A stretch of DNA of 64,000 nucleotides from Patescibacteria group bacterium (GTDB taxonomy: Bacteria > Patescibacteriota > Microgenomatia > Levybacterales > UBA12049). The stretch lies in assembly GCA_035457005.1 (NCBI GenBank), contig DATICB010000020.1, forward strand, positions 2,109 to 66,108, given 5' to 3'. A model generated the notes under the pieces. It was not told the origin of the DNA, did no database searches, and saw only the letters and a list, made by a program, of their open reading frames with translations. Of the stretch, positions 24,155 to 63,604 are shown one piece after another. A program made the translations under genes and the position numbers. How positions within the stretch are numbered: position 1 is the first letter of the stretch; each line of letters starts with the position of its first letter.

Positions 24155-25048
24155 TTAGTTAGGCATGCGATGTCTTTGAAACCGTCTGAAAAAATGAGGA
24201 GTTCTTGGAGATTGTGACTCAGGAAGAAAATGAGTGTGGTATGTTTGTGGGGTAAGTAGCTCTGCTTTTCCGTTGACTAAGTATGCACCTGGTTTGGAAA
24301 CGCTGCGCAAATGATCATACTCTCTTCTCCCCAAAAGTTGCTGTCTTGTGAGGCTTTGTTCGGTAACTAATTCTATCCGTGTTCGCGGAACAACAGCAAC
24401 TCCGGCTTGCTCGAGTTGTTTTATCTTATCTGTATTCGATGTGGTGGCTATTGCAGGTCTTTCGCCAATAGTATCTTTGATAACTTTTGCCACAATGTCA
24501 TGACGACGCAGATCGTCATAATACCCCATTTCGTTGAATGCCTGCTGCATGGTTGGAATAGGAAGGTTGTGTTGCGCTGCCTCGTATTGTATGGTCGCTT
24601 GTCTGTGGACTGCTTGAGATCCGTGACCATTGCCGGCTGCTGTTTCCTCTGACACAATTGCCATAACGCCAATTCCCAATTCTGTCATTGTATCCAGCAT
24701 AAGGTCTCTCTGTTGCACACAGTCATGTCCTTGCATGTGAAAGCTAGATCCTAAATTCATGCACGGACAGGCATAATCTGCACGCACTGGTGCCGGTTCA
24801 TGCAGTGGTCTGCCTAAGCCAAGACTGTATACTGTCATTCTCATGTTTGTCTCAGGGTGTTGGTATTCTGTAACATCAAAAACAACAGGTTTGCCACCGT
24901 GCTCGGTATATACCTTTAGACCCCGAATGACACTGAATTGCTCGTCGTCAATAGTAATAGTTTCCCATGCGTTGGTGTGTGAAGCACCTTCTGTTTCTGT
25001 CGCACGCTGTGAGAAGTAGTCTGCTGGTTGTGGTGTTTCGGTGCTCAT
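24155..25048 (-). CDS. GTP cyclohydrolase II-family (RibA-like) protein with C-terminal extension
   Basis: Cys cluster CPC...HDC, GNGHGSQ, and C-terminal ...PAIATTSNTDKIKQLEQAGVAVV resembling the RibA LLTNNP.K...L...G region; noticeably higher GC (about 47%) than flanking genes. Confidence 0.5.
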   Translation of the reverse strand: MSTETPQPADYFSQRATETEGASHTNAWETITIDDEQFSVIRGLKVYTEHGGKPVVFDVTEYQHPETNMRMTVYSLGLGRPLHEPAPVRADYACPCMNLGSSFHMQGHDCVQQRDLMLDTMTELGIGVMAIVSEETAAGNGHGSQAVHRQATIQYEAAQHNLPIPTMQQAFNEMGYYDDLRRHDIVAKVIKDTIGERPAIATTSNTDKIKQLEQAGVAVVPRTRIELVTEQSLTRQQLLGRREYDHLRSVSKPGAYLVNGKAELLTPQTYHTHFLPESQSPRTPHFFRRFQRHRMPN

Positions 25049-25213
25049 AAGTAATAAAAAACAGCCGTGTGGCTGTTGAGATCAAAAAAAATGCTCCAAA
25101 GGAGCATACGCTTAGTAATCTTTTTGAAAAAAATTGATCGGAAAATTGTCCAAAAAAAATCAGAGTGTTTCATCGCTCTGAGATTTAATTATGAAGGATG
25201 AGATATGAATATG

Positions 25214-25873
25214 TCAAGAGGAATTTGTTTTATTTACCAAAAATTCTTTCCCATGACCAACAGTAGTGTTGATGGGAATACCTTTCTTACACAGTGGACA
25301 CACGCTTTGACTATATGCATCTGCTTTAAAAACAGAAAGAGCGAAAAATGGCGCTTGCATAAATCTTCTAGTCACATCTTTTGGATTGCGATTAAGTAAA
25401 ACAAAAACGCCAACAACTTTTCCTTTTGCTTTTTTTACCTCGTCGACAACTTTCTTAACAGATGCTCCGGTTGTTGTTAGGTCCTCCACAACCAACACTC
25501 GTTTGTTTTTAATCAGCTCATCATAGCCCCTTTTAAATAGTTGCGGTTTGTCAAATTTTTGTACATCATCATAACTTTTTTCTGTAAATACACTTAAGAC
25601 TTCCTTTTTTGTCAATTTTGATAAATGATACGCAACCCACTGAGAAAGAATAATCCCTCCAACCGATGGTCCAACAACAATTTGAATTTTTTTATTTTTC
25701 ATTTCTTCTGCCATCATTTTGCACACTTTTGATGTCAAGAGCGTATGTGGATACAATTTATCTTTTCGAATATACACGCTACCATGTTTTCCCGACGTAT
25801 AGACAAAATGATCATTGGTAATAATTGCTCCTGTTTGCTCTAAGATTTGTAATGTTTTTTTATTTGTATCCAT
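25214..25873 (-). CDS. pyrE: orotate phosphoribosyltransferase
   Basis: PRPP-binding motif VLVVEDLTTTGASV; 219 aa. Confidence 0.85.
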   Translation of the reverse strand: MDTNKKTLQILEQTGAIITNDHFVYTSGKHGSVYIRKDKLYPHTLLTSKVCKMMAEEMKNKKIQIVVGPSVGGIILSQWVAYHLSKLTKKEVLSVFTEKSYDDVQKFDKPQLFKRGYDELIKNKRVLVVEDLTTTGASVKKVVDEVKKAKGKVVGVFVLLNRNPKDVTRRFMQAPFFALSVFKADAYSQSVCPLCKKGIPINTTVGHGKEFLVNKTNSS

Positions 25874-26671
25874 TTATCTGTATCTATTAATAGTATTTTT
25901 TGTTTTTTCTGCTTCTTCTCTGGGGTTTTTTGCAAAAATAATACTTCGTGAACTACTCATTATCAAACCAGCATTTTGAGAATTAAGTCCTGTCTGCAGC
26001 GTTTGTTTAATATCTCCTCCTTGCGCGCCAATACCTGGCACTAAAAATGTCATATCGCCAGCGAGTTTTCTTATTTCTTTTACTTCTTTTGGATATGTGG
26101 CACCAACGACCATAAGGCAATTTTTATTTTTATTCCATTTTCGCACAACACGTTTTGCAACTTTTCTATATATTGTTTCTTTGCCTATACGCAAGTCCTG
26201 AAATTCTCCTGCCCCTGGATTTGAAGTTTTACACAAAACAATAATTCCCTTTTCTTTTCTATCCAAAAAAGGCTGTATTGCTTCTTGTCCTAAATACGGA
26301 TGAATTGTTACAGCATCAACTTGTAAATAGTCAAATATAAATTGCACATAACCTTCGTTGGTGCTCCCGATATCACCCCTTTTTGCGTCAAGAATAATCG
26401 GAATTTCTGGATAATCTTTTTTGAGATAATCGCATGTTTTTTTTAACTCCCCTATTCCCTTTTCTCCCAGCGCTTCGTAGAAAGCAGAGTTTGGCTTATA
26501 ACAGCAAACTAAATTATGAGTGGTATCAATAATAAATTTATTAAATGCAAAAAATGAAAATTTTTCTTGGAGAAATTGTTTTGGTAATTTTTCCAAAACT
26601 GGATCCAGCCCAATACACAAAAGAGAATTATTTTTTTTCACCAAGTCATCTAATTTTTTTTGAAATGTCAT
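25874..26671 (-). CDS. pyrF: orotidine-5'-phosphate decarboxylase (long/type-2 form)
   Basis: ILDAKRGDIGST motif; start set to MTFQKKL, giving an ATGA overlap with the pyrD stop. Confidence 0.85.
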   Translation of the reverse strand: MTFQKKLDDLVKKNNSLLCIGLDPVLEKLPKQFLQEKFSFFAFNKFIIDTTHNLVCCYKPNSAFYEALGEKGIGELKKTCDYLKKDYPEIPIILDAKRGDIGSTNEGYVQFIFDYLQVDAVTIHPYLGQEAIQPFLDRKEKGIIVLCKTSNPGAGEFQDLRIGKETIYRKVAKRVVRKWNKNKNCLMVVGATYPKEVKEIRKLAGDMTFLVPGIGAQGGDIKQTLQTGLNSQNAGLIMSSSRSIIFAKNPREEAEKTKNTINRYR

Positions 26672-27732
26672 AGATATTTTTCCTTTATTTCTTGCGCAAA
26701 ATATGGATTCCACATTGCTGCAGTTGCACTCATAACAACATCTGCTCCAGTATCTCTATATTTTTTGTAATGTTTTGGAAGCATTACTCCACCCATTCCA
26801 ATAATAGTAAAGTTCATTTGCAAATCTTCTCGAATTTTTTTAAGGTTAGCAACCATATCAAGACCAGCCCATCGTACTCCGTCTCCACATGCTCCCGCGA
26901 TAAGTCTTCCAGGTAAAACTTCATTCCCCTTTTTGTCTATGACTTTTGTTGGAATAGTATTGATGCATGAAATACAATCAACTATATCGCCAACAGCCTT
27001 GACTAATTTTTTTAATTGTTCGTAATTGGGAAAATATGCAACCTTCACTACAAGAGGCATATTCCCCACTTCATTTTTTATTGCCTCCAGCACTTTCTGT
27101 GTTTTTGCAATATCAAAACAAAGTAGGCTAGACGAGCCCTCATTCGGACAACTCGTATTTGCTTCTAAAATTTTACAACCTGTTTCTTTTACCAACCGAG
27201 CAGTTGTCACCCAATCTTCAATAAATTGCCTTTCACTTCCACTTCCATCTGGAGTGCCTTCTGTCGCACATATGAGCATCTGTCCTTTTCCGATATATCC
27301 AACTGATTTTTTAAGATCTGGTTGCCAGATATCTGGGACGTGGGACGGATTGCCGAAGGAGTTGGTAATTGTTAACGGTTGTGTAAATCTTTTCTTGGCA
27401 TAAACACCTTTTGTGGCCTTGTTTAAGCTAAGTTGCCCCTTAATATTTAATTGAACAACATTCGGCCATTGATTAGAAGGCTTATTTCTCGATCTTACTG
27501 TTTTTTGAATAACTATATCGAAGCCTTTATCCAGTGCGCCTTTAATAAATTTGCTATTAAAGAGCGGTCCGGATGCAATACCAAACGGGAGAAAGACTTT
27601 TTGGTCTAGAAATTCGTATTCAGGCTTGCCTTTATTTTTGTAAACTTTGTTATCTGCAAATGCCCCAAAGGGCCCATCTTTCCAATTGTCTTCCCAAGAT
27701 TTCCCTGGATCGTAAAAAGGAGTATGAAGCAT
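26668..27732 (-). CDS. pyrD: dihydroorotate dehydrogenase, class 1 (PyrD family)
   Basis: TIM-barrel FMN enzyme; active-site NTSCPN motif (Cys base, class 1), GIASGP, C-terminal GMGGV FMN-phosphate loop. Confidence 0.8.
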   Translation of the reverse strand: MLHTPFYDPGKSWEDNWKDGPFGAFADNKVYKNKGKPEYEFLDQKVFLPFGIASGPLFNSKFIKGALDKGFDIVIQKTVRSRNKPSNQWPNVVQLNIKGQLSLNKATKGVYAKKRFTQPLTITNSFGNPSHVPDIWQPDLKKSVGYIGKGQMLICATEGTPDGSGSERQFIEDWVTTARLVKETGCKILEANTSCPNEGSSSLLCFDIAKTQKVLEAIKNEVGNMPLVVKVAYFPNYEQLKKLVKAVGDIVDCISCINTIPTKVIDKKGNEVLPGRLIAGACGDGVRWAGLDMVANLKKIREDLQMNFTIIGMGGVMLPKHYKKYRDTGADVVMSATAAMWNPYFAQEIKEKYL

Positions 27733-27734
27733 GT

Positions 27735-29345
27735 TTATAATCCCACATTGGCATCAACCAAACGACCAGAATGGTTGGAAAGAGATTTTCCGTTGGACTT
27801 TTCTGAAATGAGATTTGTGTGATTTTCGCTAAGATTACTCATTACTATTTGTGCAACTTCAACATCGGTAATTAGTCCAGCGCCTGTTTTGATTGCTCCT
27901 TTGCGGATTAATTTTCCGTCAGTAAATTCTTTACTTTCTTTAAACAATTTTCTTGTTGGAATATCGATAATTACATCAAACACTTTTTTATTCAACAAAT
28001 CTGCAATGTTGGGAGTTTCGCCAACTTCTGAAATTTTATGAACTAGTGCTGTCTGGACTCCTTTACTTTTTAAAAACTCATGGGTGTGTTCTGTCGCATA
28101 AAAAATTGCATTACCTGATTTGGCTAACAATTTGACAACTGGAAGTAATTGTCTTTTGTTTTCCACTCTACCAATCGAGAGAAGTATATGCTTTTTTTCA
28201 GGAATAATAATTGGCGCCTGTCCATAATGTTTTTTATTCCAATCCCCTGTCTGTAAATTAAGAAGATAGAAAAGCGATGCATTGCGAATATCTTTTTCTC
28301 CTAAAATATATTGCATGACGCGGTCATTACCTGCGCCATATCCTGCATGTGGATTTGTCCCTTTTTTCTCCATAATATCCAAGTACCATTTGAAATCTTC
28401 ATATCGCCCGCCTCTTTGGATATGCAACTTAAACATTGTTGATGTAATAAGTCTTTCGTTTAACTTTTCAAAATCGTGCTCTCTCACTGATGCGCCTGTT
28501 CCCTCTCCTGCATAGGGGAAAATGCAGTCTGCAGAAAGACATACTCTGCTGTCTTTACTTGATACTTTCATGTTAAAGAATTTAATTTCTTTTGGATATT
28601 TCATAATAAATACCGGTAGCTCCGTCTTGTCTTTTTTATTTAATACTTCAACAATTTTTGCTTCGTGGTTTGCCTTTAAATCGTCACCAAAAGAAACTTC
28701 TGGGTATCCATTGACATTGAGTAATTTCACTGCGTCTTCATAGCTAATACGGTGGAAATTATGAGTTGCAGCGTATCGAATTTTTTCAATATTTCTTTTG
28801 TATATAGTCTGAAGTATTTTTTCGTTGTCTTTAAGAATACCACTAAGCATACTCTGAATTGTTTCTTGAATATTAACGAGCAATGCTTCGTACATTTTAT
28901 CTTCATCGTATGTTTCGCGCGTCATACCAATGGTGGTACTGTCAAATTCTTCTTCTGTTAATCGAAATTGTCGTAAGTGTCTTTCGTCTTCTATTTCCTC
29001 ATCCCGTCCCGAATGAATAACAGTAAAAACACTTGGAAGACTTTGCAGCGCTTGTTCAAGTGCTAGCTGTCCTGTTTGAGTGAAGAAAAGCGGAATGTCG
29101 TTATGATTTCCTACTTTGAAAAGTGTATCAACATTTTCGCATGCACCAGTTATGCCAACAATCTCCGGGACATCAACATATGTTCTGCCCCTCTTGCGAT
29201 AACTGTCATACGCCCCTTTATTTAATGATTGATAGAAACCAACTAAATTGTTGAAATGTGTATTAAAGTCTAATTGTACTTTTTTATTTTCTACAGTTAG
29301 TTCAATTGCTTTTTTCATGTTTTTTATTTTGTCAATTTTGGTCAA
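27735..29345 (-). CDS. AsnRS/AspRS-like class II synthetase catalytic core (archaeal-type AsnA-like) fused to a C-terminal MGS-like domain
   Basis: motif 2 HLRQFRLTEEEF (FRxE); motif 3 GYGAGNDRVMQYILGEKDIRNASLF; no anticodon-binding domain; residues about 390-536 (ILLSIGRVENKRQLLPVVKLLAKSGNAIFYATEHTHEFLKSKGV...VIIDIP...GAIKTGAGLITDVEVA) match the MGS-like allosteric domain of CarB. Confidence 0.6.
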   Translation of the reverse strand: MTKIDKIKNMKKAIELTVENKKVQLDFNTHFNNLVGFYQSLNKGAYDSYRKRGRTYVDVPEIVGITGACENVDTLFKVGNHNDIPLFFTQTGQLALEQALQSLPSVFTVIHSGRDEEIEDERHLRQFRLTEEEFDSTTIGMTRETYDEDKMYEALLVNIQETIQSMLSGILKDNEKILQTIYKRNIEKIRYAATHNFHRISYEDAVKLLNVNGYPEVSFGDDLKANHEAKIVEVLNKKDKTELPVFIMKYPKEIKFFNMKVSSKDSRVCLSADCIFPYAGEGTGASVREHDFEKLNERLITSTMFKLHIQRGGRYEDFKWYLDIMEKKGTNPHAGYGAGNDRVMQYILGEKDIRNASLFYLLNLQTGDWNKKHYGQAPIIIPEKKHILLSIGRVENKRQLLPVVKLLAKSGNAIFYATEHTHEFLKSKGVQTALVHKISEVGETPNIADLLNKKVFDVIIDIPTRKLFKESKEFTDGKLIRKGAIKTGAGLITDVEVAQIVMSNLSENHTNLISEKSNGKSLSNHSGRLVDANVGL

Positions 29346-29369
29346 AAAAAAGAGCCGAAACGGCTCTTA
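29343..29369 (-). terminator. rho-independent terminator / candidate attenuator hairpin
   Basis: minus strand AAGAGCCG-TTT-CGGCTCTT followed by TTTTTT; the stop codon of the 18-aa uORF overlaps the 5' arm. Confidence 0.65.
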
Positions 29370-29423
29370 TATGTTTTGCGCTTTTGCGAAAATCTTTATT
29401 TTTTTATTTTTACAAGTTGTCAT
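29367..29423 (-). CDS. candidate leader peptide (18 aa) MTTCKNKKIKIFAKAQNI
   Basis: AAGGAG 8 nt upstream of ATG; stop codon abuts the terminator stem; promoter-like element upstream. Confidence 0.3.
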   Translation of the reverse strand: MTTCKNKKIKIFAKAQNI

Positions 29424-29442
29424 TTTTTTATCTCCTTGAATA

Positions 29443-29471
29443 ACATTAAAGAGTTTTGAAAACCTTGTCAA
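29443..29471 (-). promoter_or_regulatory. sigma70-like promoter candidate for the leader/pyr transcription unit
   Basis: minus strand TTGACA-N17-TAATGT, 11 nt upstream of the SD. Confidence 0.4.
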
Positions 29472-29496
29472 TAGATCAAAAGAGTACTTAAAGGGG

Positions 29497-30351
29497 TCAA
29501 TTTTCTATAGAATGCTCTGCAGCACTGACAACATTTTCAAGAAGACAGGCAACGTTGACCGGTCCCACACCGCCCGGTGTCGGTGTATACCAACCAGCAA
29601 TATCTTTTATTTTTTCTTCATTGTAGTCTCCATAAAATTTTCCATCATCCCCTCTTGTCATGCCAACATTTAAAAGAATAACATCTTTTTTAATCATGTC
29701 TTTTGTCAAAACACCTGGCTTCCCAACAGCAGTAATAATGATATCTGCTTTTTTAGCGATGTCTTCTGGATTTTTTGTTTGAGAGTCAATCACTGTTGGC
29801 TCTACTCCCCTATTTTGAAATTCTTTAATAATTGGTGTCCCACCTGTTGTACCTTTGCCCATAACAACAATATGTTTGCTGAGTAACCATTCATTGAATG
29901 ACTCACCTGTTGTGATTGTTTCTTTTATCATTGGCACTTCTAAAAGTTTCATAATTGCTGCAGCAATAGGGACAGTAAATGGTGAATTAGGAGTGAACCC
30001 ATCAACGTCTTTTTTAGGGTCTATAGAGTTAATAAGTTTTTGTTCATTCAAATTTTTTGGAATTGGGAGCTGAAGAATAATGCCGTGAATATCGCCATTT
30101 TTCTGCAGAAAATCAATTGTCTCCTTGAGCTTTTCCTGTGATATATTTTCCGGATGTTTATAGACACTTACTAAAGTGCCAATTTCTTTTGCTCTTTTTT
30201 CTTTCTGTAAAACATAAGAGACTGTTTCTGGATTTTCACCGACCATAACAACAGCTAAATGCGGCATAATCCCCTTTTCGGCAAGCGCGTCAACACGGAT
30301 AATCAGCTCTGCTAGCAAATGATTAGCAACCGTACGGCCATCTAAAATCAT
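29497..30351 (-). CDS. folD: bifunctional methylene-THF dehydrogenase/methenyl-THF cyclohydrolase
   Basis: 284 aa; FolD catalytic and NAD(P)-binding domains (GKGTTGGTPI...). Confidence 0.9.
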   Translation of the reverse strand: MILDGRTVANHLLAELIIRVDALAEKGIMPHLAVVMVGENPETVSYVLQKEKRAKEIGTLVSVYKHPENISQEKLKETIDFLQKNGDIHGIILQLPIPKNLNEQKLINSIDPKKDVDGFTPNSPFTVPIAAAIMKLLEVPMIKETITTGESFNEWLLSKHIVVMGKGTTGGTPIIKEFQNRGVEPTVIDSQTKNPEDIAKKADIIITAVGKPGVLTKDMIKKDVILLNVGMTRGDDGKFYGDYNEEKIKDIAGWYTPTPGGVGPVNVACLLENVVSAAEHSIEN

Positions 30352-61138: not shown

Positions 61139-61291
61139 AAAAAAATCTCCCTGGTGGGAGATGATTGTTTTGCTGAAAATTATTTATTTATCCATTAGCA
61201 CGCACAATCTCCCCCGTCAGAGAGGTTGTAATAATAAGCACTTCGTGTCGAAAGACTCATAGTTATATTATTCTAACAATGTTGCGGGGAC

Positions 61292-63604
61292 TTGTCAACT
61301 TTGTCTATAATAGGCTATATGGAGTTTCAGTCGAGACGCCGTCGCCGCAGTATTATTGGTCAAATCTGGCAATTTTTTTTCCCTAGTACAAATGGTGCAT
61401 CTCGGATTATGTTGTACAGCAGACTGGCCCGCCTCACCTTATTTGCACTTATTATTGGTATTGTTATTTTTGTTATTCTTTTTATTTGGTACGGACGTGA
61501 TTTGCCTGCACCTGGCAAACTCATTAACAGTAGTTTGGCTGAGTCGACACGAATTTATGATAGAAAAGGTGTGCTCCTCTACTCTGTCTACAAAGACCAA
61601 AATCGTGCATATGTGTCTCTTAACGACATACCTAAAAATGTGCAACACGCAACAATTGCGATAGAAGACAGAAATTTTTACACAAATTCTGGATTTTCTG
61701 TAACAGGCTATGTCCGCTCGTTTATTGATCTTATTGTGTATCGAAGAATTGTGAGTGGAGGCTCAACACTTACGCAGCAATTGGTCAAAAATGTATTATT
61801 GCAAGATACGCAGCAGACATTTATCCGCAAGCTCAAAGAGCTTATTTTGGCAATCCAGGTAGACAAAAGATATTCAAAAGATCAAATCCTGGAAATGTAT
61901 TTAAATGATGTGCCGTATGGTGGTGCAAATATTGGTGTTGAGTCGGCGGCGCAAGCATATTTTGGGAAAGATGTAAAAGATTTGGATTTGGCACAATCTG
62001 CATTTTTAGCAGGATTGCCTCAGGCGCCAAGTGTGTACTCGCCATTTTCTGGGAATAAATACTACCTGGCCAGGACACAGGCAGTCTTGAATGCGATGCG
62101 AGACGAAGGCTATATTTCGCAAAAACAAGACGATAGTGCGTATAAAGAGGTTCAGCAAATGAGTTTTTCAGATACTGACAGATCGATTAAGGCGCCGCAC
62201 TGGGTCATGTATATTAAACAGCTTCTTGCCCAGCAGTTTGGCGAGGCAGCTGTTGATAACGGTGGATTACAAGTAACAACAACTCTTGACTATGACATTG
62301 AGAAAAATGCAGAGGCAACAGTAAAGTCAGAAATTGGAAAATTGAAAGGATATCATGTTGCCAATGCAGCGGCAATGGTTATGGATCCAAAGACTGGACA
62401 AATTTTAGCAATGGTTGGGAATACTGACTATTTTGATACATCAATTGATGGGAATTACAACGATGCGTTGGCAAACAGACAGCCTGGGTCTTCTCTAAAA
62501 CCAATTATGTACGCAACAGCATTTGAAAAAGGCTACACCCCGGCAACAGAAGTAATGGACGTCAAGACAGATTTCCCATCTGGTGATCCGATAAATCCCA
62601 ATTATCAGCCAGTCAACTATGATGGCAAATATCATGGCCCGATTCAGTTGCGATTTGCATTGGGAAATTCCATGAATATTCCAGCTGTTAAAATGCTTGC
62701 ACGGGTTGGGATAAAAGATGTCATGACAAATGCATTTAATATGGGCATTAAAAATTGGGAGCCAACATCGAGTAATATTGCCAATGTTGGCCTGTCACTT
62801 GTTTTGGGAGGACGCGAGACAACACTTCTTGATGAAATGACTGCATACAGTGTGTTTGCAGATAACGGAGTAAAACATGATCCTGTTGCGATTCTTAAGG
62901 TAACAGACAGTCACGGAAATACACTTTTCCAAAATCAGGACAAATCAGGCATGCAGGTTCTCCCCAAAGAGGTAACCTTTCTTATTTCCCATATTTTACT
63001 GGACAATAATGCAAGAGAAGCAGAATTTGGTCCAAATTCGTGGCTTGTTGTCTCGGGTAAAACAGTCAGTGTAAAAACAGGAACAACAGATGATAAAAAA
63101 GACAACTGGACTATGGGATACACGCCCTCGTATGTTGTAGGCGTCTGGGTTGGCAACAACGACAACAGTGCAATGAATCAAGCAATTGCGTCAGGCGTAA
63201 CAGGAGCGTCTCCTATTTGGAATAAAATTATGACGTATGTTTTAAAGGGCAAGCCAGATGAGCCGCCGGTGAAACCAGACAATGTTGTTGCGGTTACGGT
63301 TGATTCTCTTTTTGGGGGACTTCCCTACAATAATCAGCCAACACGGTCTGAATACTTTATTAAAGGTACTGAGCCAACAGCAACAAATCCTGTGTATCAG
63401 TCGAAAGATGGAAAAATTTATTATGTTGTTAGAGAATCAGATCCTGTAAGTACAGACGGCGTGAATAGGTGGCAACAAGGAATCGATACCTGGATTACAC
63501 AAAATCATTCTGCAGCGGATTATCAGTGGTACCCACCAGAAGATTTACTGAAGCAATTAAATATTGCACCAACCAATCCTGTCACACCAACACCAACGCC
63601 GTAA
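61292..63604 (+). CDS. class A penicillin-binding protein (transglycosylase + transpeptidase)
   Basis: GT51 motifs (IAIEDRNFY, TLTQQL), transpeptidase SSLKP (SxxK), SMN, KTGTT; N-terminal TM helix; exact start Met uncertain. Confidence 0.9.
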   Translation: MSTLSIIGYMEFQSRRRRRSIIGQIWQFFFPSTNGASRIMLYSRLARLTLFALIIGIVIFVILFIWYGRDLPAPGKLINSSLAESTRIYDRKGVLLYSVYKDQNRAYVSLNDIPKNVQHATIAIEDRNFYTNSGFSVTGYVRSFIDLIVYRRIVSGGSTLTQQLVKNVLLQDTQQTFIRKLKELILAIQVDKRYSKDQILEMYLNDVPYGGANIGVESAAQAYFGKDVKDLDLAQSAFLAGLPQAPSVYSPFSGNKYYLARTQAVLNAMRDEGYISQKQDDSAYKEVQQMSFSDTDRSIKAPHWVMYIKQLLAQQFGEAAVDNGGLQVTTTLDYDIEKNAEATVKSEIGKLKGYHVANAAAMVMDPKTGQILAMVGNTDYFDTSIDGNYNDALANRQPGSSLKPIMYATAFEKGYTPATEVMDVKTDFPSGDPINPNYQPVNYDGKYHGPIQLRFALGNSMNIPAVKMLARVGIKDVMTNAFNMGIKNWEPTSSNIANVGLSLVLGGRETTLLDEMTAYSVFADNGVKHDPVAILKVTDSHGNTLFQNQDKSGMQVLPKEVTFLISHILLDNNAREAEFGPNSWLVVSGKTVSVKTGTTDDKKDNWTMGYTPSYVVGVWVGNNDNSAMNQAIASGVTGASPIWNKIMTYVLKGKPDEPPVKPDNVVAVTVDSLFGGLPYNNQPTRSEYFIKGTEPTATNPVYQSKDGKIYYVVRESDPVSTDGVNRWQQGIDTWITQNHSAADYQWYPPEDLLKQLNIAPTNPVTPTPTP

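Follow-up and report, generated by a model that had tools for sequence, protein, structure and literature searches.

Between folD and a pyrimidine operon on the minus strand of a 64-kb stretch of Patescibacteria DNA (the whole stretch analysed, hereafter the window) lies a short leader ending in a terminator hairpin. Does this leader control the operon, whose first gene encodes a fusion of an AsnRS catalytic-core-like part with an MGS-like part, or does it only end the transcription of folD? An earlier note on this DNA had proposed that a promoter, a small upstream open reading frame (uORF) and the hairpin together form an attenuator. Our results point the same way. This element is probably a ribosome-dependent transcription attenuator with one terminator and no antiterminator, a function that we assign to it from its conservation and from experiments in Escherichia coli.

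Anatomy of the leader

All features described in this section lie on the minus strand. The promoter proposed in the earlier note, TTGACA-N17-TAATGT, is present at 29471-29443, with the -35 hexamer TTGACA at 29466-29471 and, after a 17-nt spacer, the -10 hexamer TAATGT at 29443-29448. Since TAATGT agrees with TATAAT at only 3/6 positions, a consensus promoter scan made no call there; the hexamer carries the T-A-n-n-n-T of the orthologous leaders. Transcription from this promoter is predicted to start at about 29437-29435 (A/A/G), that is, at the Shine-Dalgarno (SD) sequence AAGGAG (29431-29436). After a further 8 nt, an ATG at 29423 opens a uORF of 18 codons plus TAA (29367-29423), translated as MTTCKNKKIKIFAKAQNI. 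Sequence and translation are as previously described, and the uORF, with 56% A, bears out the description of the leader as A-rich.

The uORF stop codon TAA (29369-29367) contributes its AA as the first two bases of the hairpin stem, so the overlap of stop codon and 5' arm that had been noticed before amounts to 2 nt. The attenuator hairpin, AAGAGCCG-UUU-CGGCUCUU (29350-29368), was located by terminator scan and folding and is followed by a U8 tract (29344-29351). Its 8 bp give -11.2 kcal/mol (z -5.0), a value equalled by 0/200 shuffles. The leader RNA 5' of the stem has no stable fold (-3.1 kcal/mol, z +0.5), and no antiterminator was found by minimum free energy folding of the leader or by alignment folding of its relatives. 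A U4 run within the uORF (AUU UUC, 29389-29392), 20 nt ahead of the stem, is a candidate slow site sensitive to uridine triphosphate (UTP).

One earlier claim had to be corrected. The terminator had been placed 2 nt ahead of the start codon of the AsnRS-like gene, a start misplaced by 27 nt. The fusion gene begins at ATG 29318 (MKKAIELTVE), in agreement with the N-termini of its relatives, and not at the mechanically called TTG 29345, so that 25 nt, not 2 nt, separate the end of the U-tract from the start codon. Two additional -35-like hexamers, TTGACC (29345-29340) and TTGACA (29335-29330), occur in the gap that separates the U-tract from the operon ATG; neither has a usable -10 hexamer ahead of the coding region, and both are probably due to chance. 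The latter was considered as part of a promoter between terminator and operon and was rejected, as there is no usable -10 hexamer ahead of the ATG.

Conservation of the leader

Chance at this single locus was estimated from dinucleotide shuffles of the leader. An ATG open reading frame (ORF) ending at the hairpin arises with a probability of 0.11 when it has at least 10 codons and of 0.033 when it has at least 18 codons; when an SD 4-mer is also required, the probability is 0.005. Because these values are not negligible, the significance of the arrangement rests on comparative data.

The closest comparison was made with ten loci (L161-L170) whose first-gene proteins are 74-82% identical to that of the window. 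The best public relatives of the fusion protein are 73-82% identical (at most 75% in genome and metagenome scans and at most 82% in a protein search), so that only a coarse codon-level comparison was possible, with no nucleotide-level ratio of nonsynonymous to synonymous changes. All ten loci (10/10) carry TTGACA, an ATG uORF of 14-20 codons and AAGAGCC(G)-loop-(C)GGCUCUU with U8-9, followed by the gene. A purine-rich SD sequence is present in most, and AAGGAG itself is conserved in L161, L163, L167 and L169. In a MAFFT alignment of the close relatives, the invariant parts are the -35 hexamer, the terminator stem and the U-tract, which appears as T7-T9 after the stem; the invariance of the -35 hexamer is partly by construction, because the sequences were trimmed to begin at TTGACA. 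Alignment folding returned the terminator as the sole consensus structure.

Conservation of the uORF in related genomes, which the earlier note had named as a check, was found for its presence, position and end point and not for its peptide sequence. The peptides of the relatives have diverged (MTTWKNKTPKIFANTQTR, MTWKNKQIIFKKKSK, MKKIIKNKKKLLVF, MTRQKITKKLFPGGIIS and others). The uORFs of the window and L163 both have 18 codons with no indel; what separates those of L167 and L169 is a 6-nt length change that keeps the frame, together with three synonymous third-position changes. As the peptide is not conserved, a functional small protein is unlikely.

The gene upstream of the leader varies among these relatives. 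L162 (amidohydrolase), L163 (asparaginase) and L164 have a divergent gene there, in L170 the gene belongs to the dCTP-deaminase/dUTPase family, and in L167 an unannotated ORF of 110 amino acids stands between folD and the leader. Since the leader is kept alongside divergent or other upstream genes, the hairpin is not merely a folD terminator, which had been offered earlier as the simpler explanation. In the window, where it lies 128 nt downstream of the folD stop codon on the same strand, it will also stop read-through from folD.

The wider family comprised 150 loci with sufficient upstream sequence, 79 of which have a strict terminator at most 130 nt from the gene start. Conservation across this family extends to the promoter predicted between the upstream gene and the hairpin. 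As an unbiased test of the -35 hexamer, exact TTGACA was counted over 65 distinct loci in the interval 72-142 nt 5' of the terminator; it occurs there on the sense strand in 44/65 loci, compared with 3 on the antisense strand and 2.8 in shuffles (maximum 9). A -10 hexamer of the form T-A-n-n-n-T was found in 50-53 of 53 leaders, where about 10% would be expected by chance according to a rough estimate.

The uORF is conserved in presence and position. In 36/56 non-redundant leaders an ATG uORF with 10 codons or more stops between -12 nt and mid-hairpin (4.3±1.8 expected, maximum 11), and an ATG uORF reaches the terminator at all in 48/56 (13.9±3.2 expected, maximum 23). Stop-to-stem spacers were counted in the 39 leaders with a called ATG uORF of at least 8 codons: the stop overlaps the stem (-2 nt) in 14, precedes it by 1-9 nt in 18 and lies in or beyond the hairpin in 7. 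A GGAG-type SD 4-mer stands ahead of the uORF ATG in 14/39 leaders, compared with a background of 7%, an approximately 5-fold enrichment. In most leaders the distance from the -35 hexamer to the uORF ATG is 36-52 nt, which means that the uORF starts at, or at most ~16 nt from, the predicted transcript start. The stem end is followed by the gene ATG after 5-31 nt in most leaders; this gap leaves no room for a second promoter downstream and places the terminator inside a transcribed leader.

The terminator stem GAGCC/GGCUC is invariant in 9 close relatives and recurs in ~40 related loci with proteins 51-82% identical, and in 1.09 Mb of the loci compared it is nearly confined to this leader. A U often stands 5' of this stem, giving UAAGAGCC with a built-in stop codon. 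Other orthologous leaders have unrelated stems (GGAGCGC, CCCGCG, GGGGGC and others) with the same uORF-to-stem geometry, and the stop-to-stem distance stays at or below 9 nt even though the leaders of these lineages have no further sequence in common.

Proposed mechanism

We infer the transcription start and stop sites and the translation of the uORF from the anatomy of the leader and its conservation. Transcription would start a few bases past TAATGT, nearly at the SD sequence, and yield an A-rich, unstructured RNA with the 18-codon uORF. About 70 nt from the start, the polymerase would reach the strong intrinsic terminator, 25 nt 5' of the first operon gene. With no ribosome close behind, the hairpin would form and transcription would end. 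The anatomy offers a single simple means of disarming the terminator: if a ribosome followed closely and stood over the end of the uORF, at its final codons or the UAA, the 5' arm would be covered during synthesis of the 3' arm and U-tract, the hairpin would not form, and the polymerase would read through into AsnRS-like/MGS-pyrD-pyrF-pyrE. Because the fate of the hairpin would be set by the trailing ribosome, the output would depend on a race between the polymerase and the first ribosome. The likeliest modulator would be pyrimidine supply: low UTP would slow the polymerase at U-runs and give the ribosome time to close the gap, which is how pyrBI and rph-pyrE work in E. coli.

Experiments in E. 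coli describe the behaviour of such arrangements. The tR2 terminator placed a few bp past a stop codon is almost fully repressed by the translating ribosome and regains ~90% efficiency only beyond ~27-30 nt, and only under coupled translation (PMC4824070). In the pyrL/pyrBI leader, tight coupling is required to block terminator formation (PMC5021804), and in rph-pyrE the distance from the rph stop codon to the attenuator loop governs pyrE expression (PMC2784333).

A putative pyrimidine signal and its reduction in the window

The function of the operon (pyrD, pyrF and pyrE) makes pyrimidine nucleotides the likely sensed input. That UTP in particular is the signal seems to us possible, with the balance tipped slightly against it. 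Runs of at least four T occur at 19.9/kb in the uORFs of the family, approximately twice as often as in the adjacent gene (8.7/kb) or over the loci (10/kb). Such a run is present in 23/32 uORFs, compared with 6.4±2.0 in mononucleotide shuffles; 10/39 uORFs have none. The constraint on U-runs would act on the RNA and not on the peptide, since there is no in-frame excess of Phe.

A second feature of many relatives is a hairpin enclosing the SD sequence and AUG of the uORF, assessed by stem statistics and a pattern scan. Its stem score is 7.45, compared with 5.80±0.22 in shuffled sequences, and examples of the stems are CCAGAG/CUCUGG, CUAGGAG/CUCCUAG, UCAGG/CCUGA and CCCAG/CUGGG. The hairpin often lies directly 5' of U6-U9, and in 1.15 Mb the pattern of promoter, hairpin and U-tract is nearly confined to the front of the fusion gene and of the gene after pyrE. 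Past the -10 hexamer the orthologous leaders follow WWWW-YYYY-RRRR, with G nearly missing at +5 to +7 and C at +9 to +12, and the 5' arm of the hairpin begins in the pyrimidine block. A conserved, covarying 5' hairpin running from the predicted start was observed, for example, in L049, L131, L127, L081, L093, L016, L026, L165 and L170; L049 and L131 are examples in which both hairpin and U-tract are complete. Together, the U-runs, the 5' hairpin and the pyrimidine and purine blocks of the family suggest steps sensitive to UTP or cytidine triphosphate (CTP).

These features are reduced in the window. Its 5' hairpin has 4 bp only (-1.2 kcal/mol, z -0.1), and its purine block starts 3 nt earlier than in the relatives. 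The window element has the appearance of a cut-down form that retains only the race of ribosome against polymerase.

We tentatively propose, while regarding it as rather doubtful, that the element is a reduced copy of an undescribed, Patescibacteria-wide pyrimidine sensor with three stages. In the first, four pyrimidines followed by four purines at the start site would decide whether the transcript has a full 5' hairpin arm. In the second, the hairpin would cover the SD sequence and leader AUG with U7-U9 directly after it; at low UTP the polymerase would be slow in the U-tract, the 3' arm would still be inside the enzyme, and a 30S subunit could capture the free SD sequence. In the third, the loaded ribosome would accompany the polymerase past one or two terminators. 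If true, such a sensor would define a small regulon, made up of the fusion-pyrDFE operon and a GTP-cyclohydrolase-II-like gene, and would point to a pyrimidine role of both uncharacterised enzymes (AsnRS-like/MGS and GTP-cyclohydrolase-II-like).

Weighing the attenuator against other explanations

Several observations weigh against a ribosome-dependent, pyrimidine-responsive attenuator. The uORF at this lone locus could be chance (0.005-0.1) and is suggestive, not compelling. Across the family, the terminator is not reached by any ATG uORF in 8/56 leaders. In so short a leader, a ribosome must load within ~70 nt of polymerase travel, which would need a putative pause, and we know of no studies of transcription-translation coupling in Patescibacteria. 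The GAGCC/GGCUC stem is conserved in sequence and not by covariation, which hints at an extra constraint, for example a binding factor. Finally, the uORF of the window has a single U4 and no U-rich cluster, and the UTP-sensing step is weakest in this very copy, with its one U4 and vestigial 5' hairpin.

The likeliest of the alternatives, although we think it improbable, is a terminator that leaks constitutively and is gated by translation but by no specific metabolite signal, which would link the operon to translational capacity or growth rate and insulate it from folD. The window copy, with neither a U-rich cluster nor a stable 5' hairpin, is compatible with it, as are the unconstrained peptide sequence of the uORF and the finding that in E. 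coli stochastic ribosome-polymerase coupling alone sets termination near stop codons (PMC4824070). However, the U-runs are enriched family-wide, and the module of hairpin and U-tract is nearly exclusive to the fusion gene and the GTP-cyclohydrolase-II-like gene, which points to a dedicated signal.

The invariance of GAGCC/GGCUC in close relatives, its recurrence without covariation at 51-82% protein identity and its near restriction to this leader would also be expected if a trans-acting protein or RNA recognised the AAGAGCC...GGCUCUU stem and the uORF were secondary. We judge this very unlikely, as many leaders with unrelated stems keep the uORF-to-stem geometry, no PyrR site was found in the leader, the operon phosphoribosyltransferase is PyrE-like and no candidate regulator gene is adjacent.

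Sensing of an amino acid, in which ribosomes held up at codons for Lys, Ile, Asn or Phe would report the supply of charged tRNA, is scarcely credible here. It would fit an AsnRS-like first gene and a uORF peptide rich in Lys, Ile and Asn, and a weak, non-significant Rfam match to Phe_leader was obtained (17.7 bits, compared with a gathering threshold of 55). However, the richness in Lys and Ile follows from the A-rich composition, there is no single-codon run, and Phe and Asn are not enriched in frame compared with the other two frames. The last of these results led us to reject Phe-codon sensing. Moreover, there is no antiterminator for a stalled ribosome to favour, and stalling with this geometry would lower expression.

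The last explanation, equally hard to credit, is an ordinary folD terminator with a fortuitous ORF or, in another form, a separate gene for a small protein that has a terminator of its own. It has in its favour the position of the hairpin behind folD and the single-locus chance of 0.03-0.1 that applies when no SD sequence is required. It is refuted by the comparative data, in which promoter, uORF and terminator also stand behind divergent (L162, L163 and L164) and other genes (L170 and L167), and in which uORF and promoter are conserved far beyond shuffle controls; nor does the stretch from terminator to operon accommodate a promoter.

The operon, the upstream gene and the host

The attenuator would control a minus-strand operon whose first gene (27735-29318) encodes the 527-amino-acid fusion protein (Pfam tRNA-synt_2 and MGS). 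Its AsnRS-like part matches the core of NCBIfam asnS and AsnRS catalytic domains in the PDB and is without the anticodon-binding domain, and its C-terminus resembles the allosteric C-terminus of the carbamoyl-phosphate synthase large subunit (NCBIfam). The rest of the operon (25214-27732; Pfam DHO_dh, OMPdecase and Pribosyltran) consists of a pyrD-like gene (27732-26668; DHO_dh), pyrF (26713-25874; OMPdecase, with NCBIfam pyrF_sub2 over its cutoff) and a pyrE-like gene (25873-25214; Pribosyltran, with pyrE_Therm as the best NCBIfam match). The fusion gene and these three, which are genes of pyrimidine nucleotide synthesis, abut or overlap with no gaps. Upstream, folD occupies 29497-30351 on the same strand, with its stop codon TGA at 29499-29497 (Pfam THF_DHG_CYH and THF_DHG_CYH_C; NCBIfam FolD).

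Genes carAB, pyrB and pyrC are not adjacent to the fusion gene, and its relatives often have a neighbouring amidohydrolase or asparaginase gene. As a speculation, the fusion enzyme might carry out an adenosine triphosphate-dependent step in place of pyrB or pyrC. The presence of the conserved leader points to pyrimidine regulation of the AsnRS-core/MGS fusion and possibly of the GTP-cyclohydrolase-II-like gene, which offers a handle on their function. Because the leader is short and self-contained, it is accessible in vitro or in E. coli, with no need to grow the host.

Further leaders in the window

Both strands of the window together hold six strong intergenic terminators, four of which lie in three leaders behind TTGACA promoters, upstream of genes. 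The remaining two were observed after a tRNA-Leu gene (9845-9811) and at 3280-3264. A census of TTGACA over the whole window (8/53 intergenic, compared with 12% expected) is uninformative, as the crude gene calls overlap promoters.

A second leader lies on the minus strand at 25045-25217, between pyrE and the GTP-cyclohydrolase-II-like gene. Behind a TTGACA-N18-CATAAT promoter it carries the hairpin UCAGAG-cgAUGaaaca-CUCUGA with U8 (-7.5 kcal/mol) and a uORF of 42 codons, MKHSDFFWTIFRSIFFKKITKRMLLWSIFFDLNSHTAVFYYL, with 8 Phe and many U-runs. The uORF crosses two tandem terminators (25107-25091 with T8 and 25077-25060 with T6) and its stop codon lies in an ATGA on the start codon of the gene. 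This layout is conserved in L163 (from SRR22388324; 5650-5860) and L165 (from GCA_021836555.1; 7100-7345). From these features, the second leader is a candidate attenuator, more pyrBI-like than the element ahead of the fusion gene. The gene behind it (24155-25048, minus strand) encodes 297 amino acids with a weak Pfam match (1.3e-6), and a PDB sequence search with the GTP-cyclohydrolase-II-like protein returned no relative. Yeast URC1 of uracil catabolism, which we take to be GTP-cyclohydrolase-II-like, would fit a pyrimidine link; a literature search gave no confirmation.

The third leader (61139-61300, minus strand) has a TTGACA-N17-TAGAAT promoter and a uORF, MSLSTRSAYYYNLSDGGDCAC, with three consecutive Tyr codons. 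Its terminator, AUCUCCC-acca-GGGAGAU with U6, is at 61162-61145, and GGGGGAGAU, which lies upstream, is a plausible antiterminator that might act in competition with the 3' arm. A HAD hydrolase gene and tyrS follow downstream. The arrangement looks like a Tyr-sensing leader-peptide attenuator, analogous to that of E. coli pheST.

This genome therefore seems to make repeated use of leader-peptide attenuation. The host is a bacterium of the Patescibacteria, or candidate phyla radiation, in the Microgenomates group. The genomes of Patescibacteria are tiny, most members are uncultured, and the phylum is regarded as carrying little regulation; no report of leader-peptide attenuation in it was found in our literature search. 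Three candidate leaders in 64 kb suggest a reliance on protein-free control by transcription-translation coupling, and control of this kind would imply tight ribosome-polymerase coupling for the phylum.

Comparison with known systems

No established RNA family accounts for the leader. At the gathering threshold, Rfam models detected only a tRNA in the window and only tRNA and rRNA in 17 related loci. At E<=10 the matches in the leader were sub-threshold and terminator-driven, with no riboswitch or curated leader family among them. The PyrR site (RF00515) was absent at the gathering threshold from the window and the 17 related loci and at E<=10 from the leader.

What the window element has in common with the PyrR-dependent pyr attenuators of Bacillus is a pyrimidine operon whose leader contains a terminator. 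Unlike them, the element has no PyrR binding loop and no pair of antiterminator and anti-antiterminator, and the phosphoribosyltransferase of this operon, the one gene for which the comparison was made, scores 1e-35 as PyrE and 1e-5 as PyrR (NCBIfam). With the trp, his, phe and pheST attenuators it shares a leader peptide and a terminator, with the position of the ribosome as the putative regulator, whereas tandem regulatory codons and an alternative 2:3 antiterminator are lacking. The relatives, for their part, resemble the start-site switching of E. coli and Salmonella pyrC and pyrD in their pyrimidine and purine blocks and in a hairpin that arises from the pyrimidine block and encloses the SD sequence and AUG (PMC6524683). 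In the relatives, however, such a switch would gate the leader peptide and not a structural gene, and in the window, given the 4-bp hairpin and the purine block shifted by 3 nt, the switch, if present in the relatives, looks lost.

The closest parallels are pyrBI and rph-pyrE. Like pyrBI (pyrL) of E. coli and Salmonella, the element combines a sigma-70-type promoter, a short leader ORF and a terminator just ahead of the first pyrimidine gene, and has no antiterminator; read-through in pyrBI needs a ribosome close behind the polymerase (PMC5021804, PMC4824070). It differs in that its 18-codon uORF ends at the foot of the stem, whereas the pyrL ORF runs through, in its single U4 as against the U-rich pause cluster of pyrBI, and in its first gene, an AsnRS-like/MGS fusion in place of aspartate transcarbamoylase; the sequences are unrelated and the host belongs to the Patescibacteria. 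With E. coli rph-pyrE it shares a pyrimidine target and a stop codon -2 to +9 nt from the stem in the leaders studied here. In rph-pyrE, however, the upstream ORF is the full gene rph, whereas the element has an 18-codon ORF that is dedicated to the leader and a promoter of its own at ~100 nt from the terminator. The layout and the comparative data thus support the earlier note's pyrBI-type reading as regards occlusion by the ribosome, whereas in geometry, with a stop codon that falls at the foot of the stem, the element is nearer to rph-pyrE. Of the features of the pyrBI/pyrE type, the element has the terminator in the leader, the ORF ending at the stem and the pyrimidine genes downstream; it lacks the features of the PyrR-dependent and amino-acid types. 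By analogy, it is a putative functional match to the ribosome-coupled pyrimidine attenuators of enterobacteria, not homologous to them, which joins the geometry of rph-pyrE to a dedicated ORF like that of pyrL.

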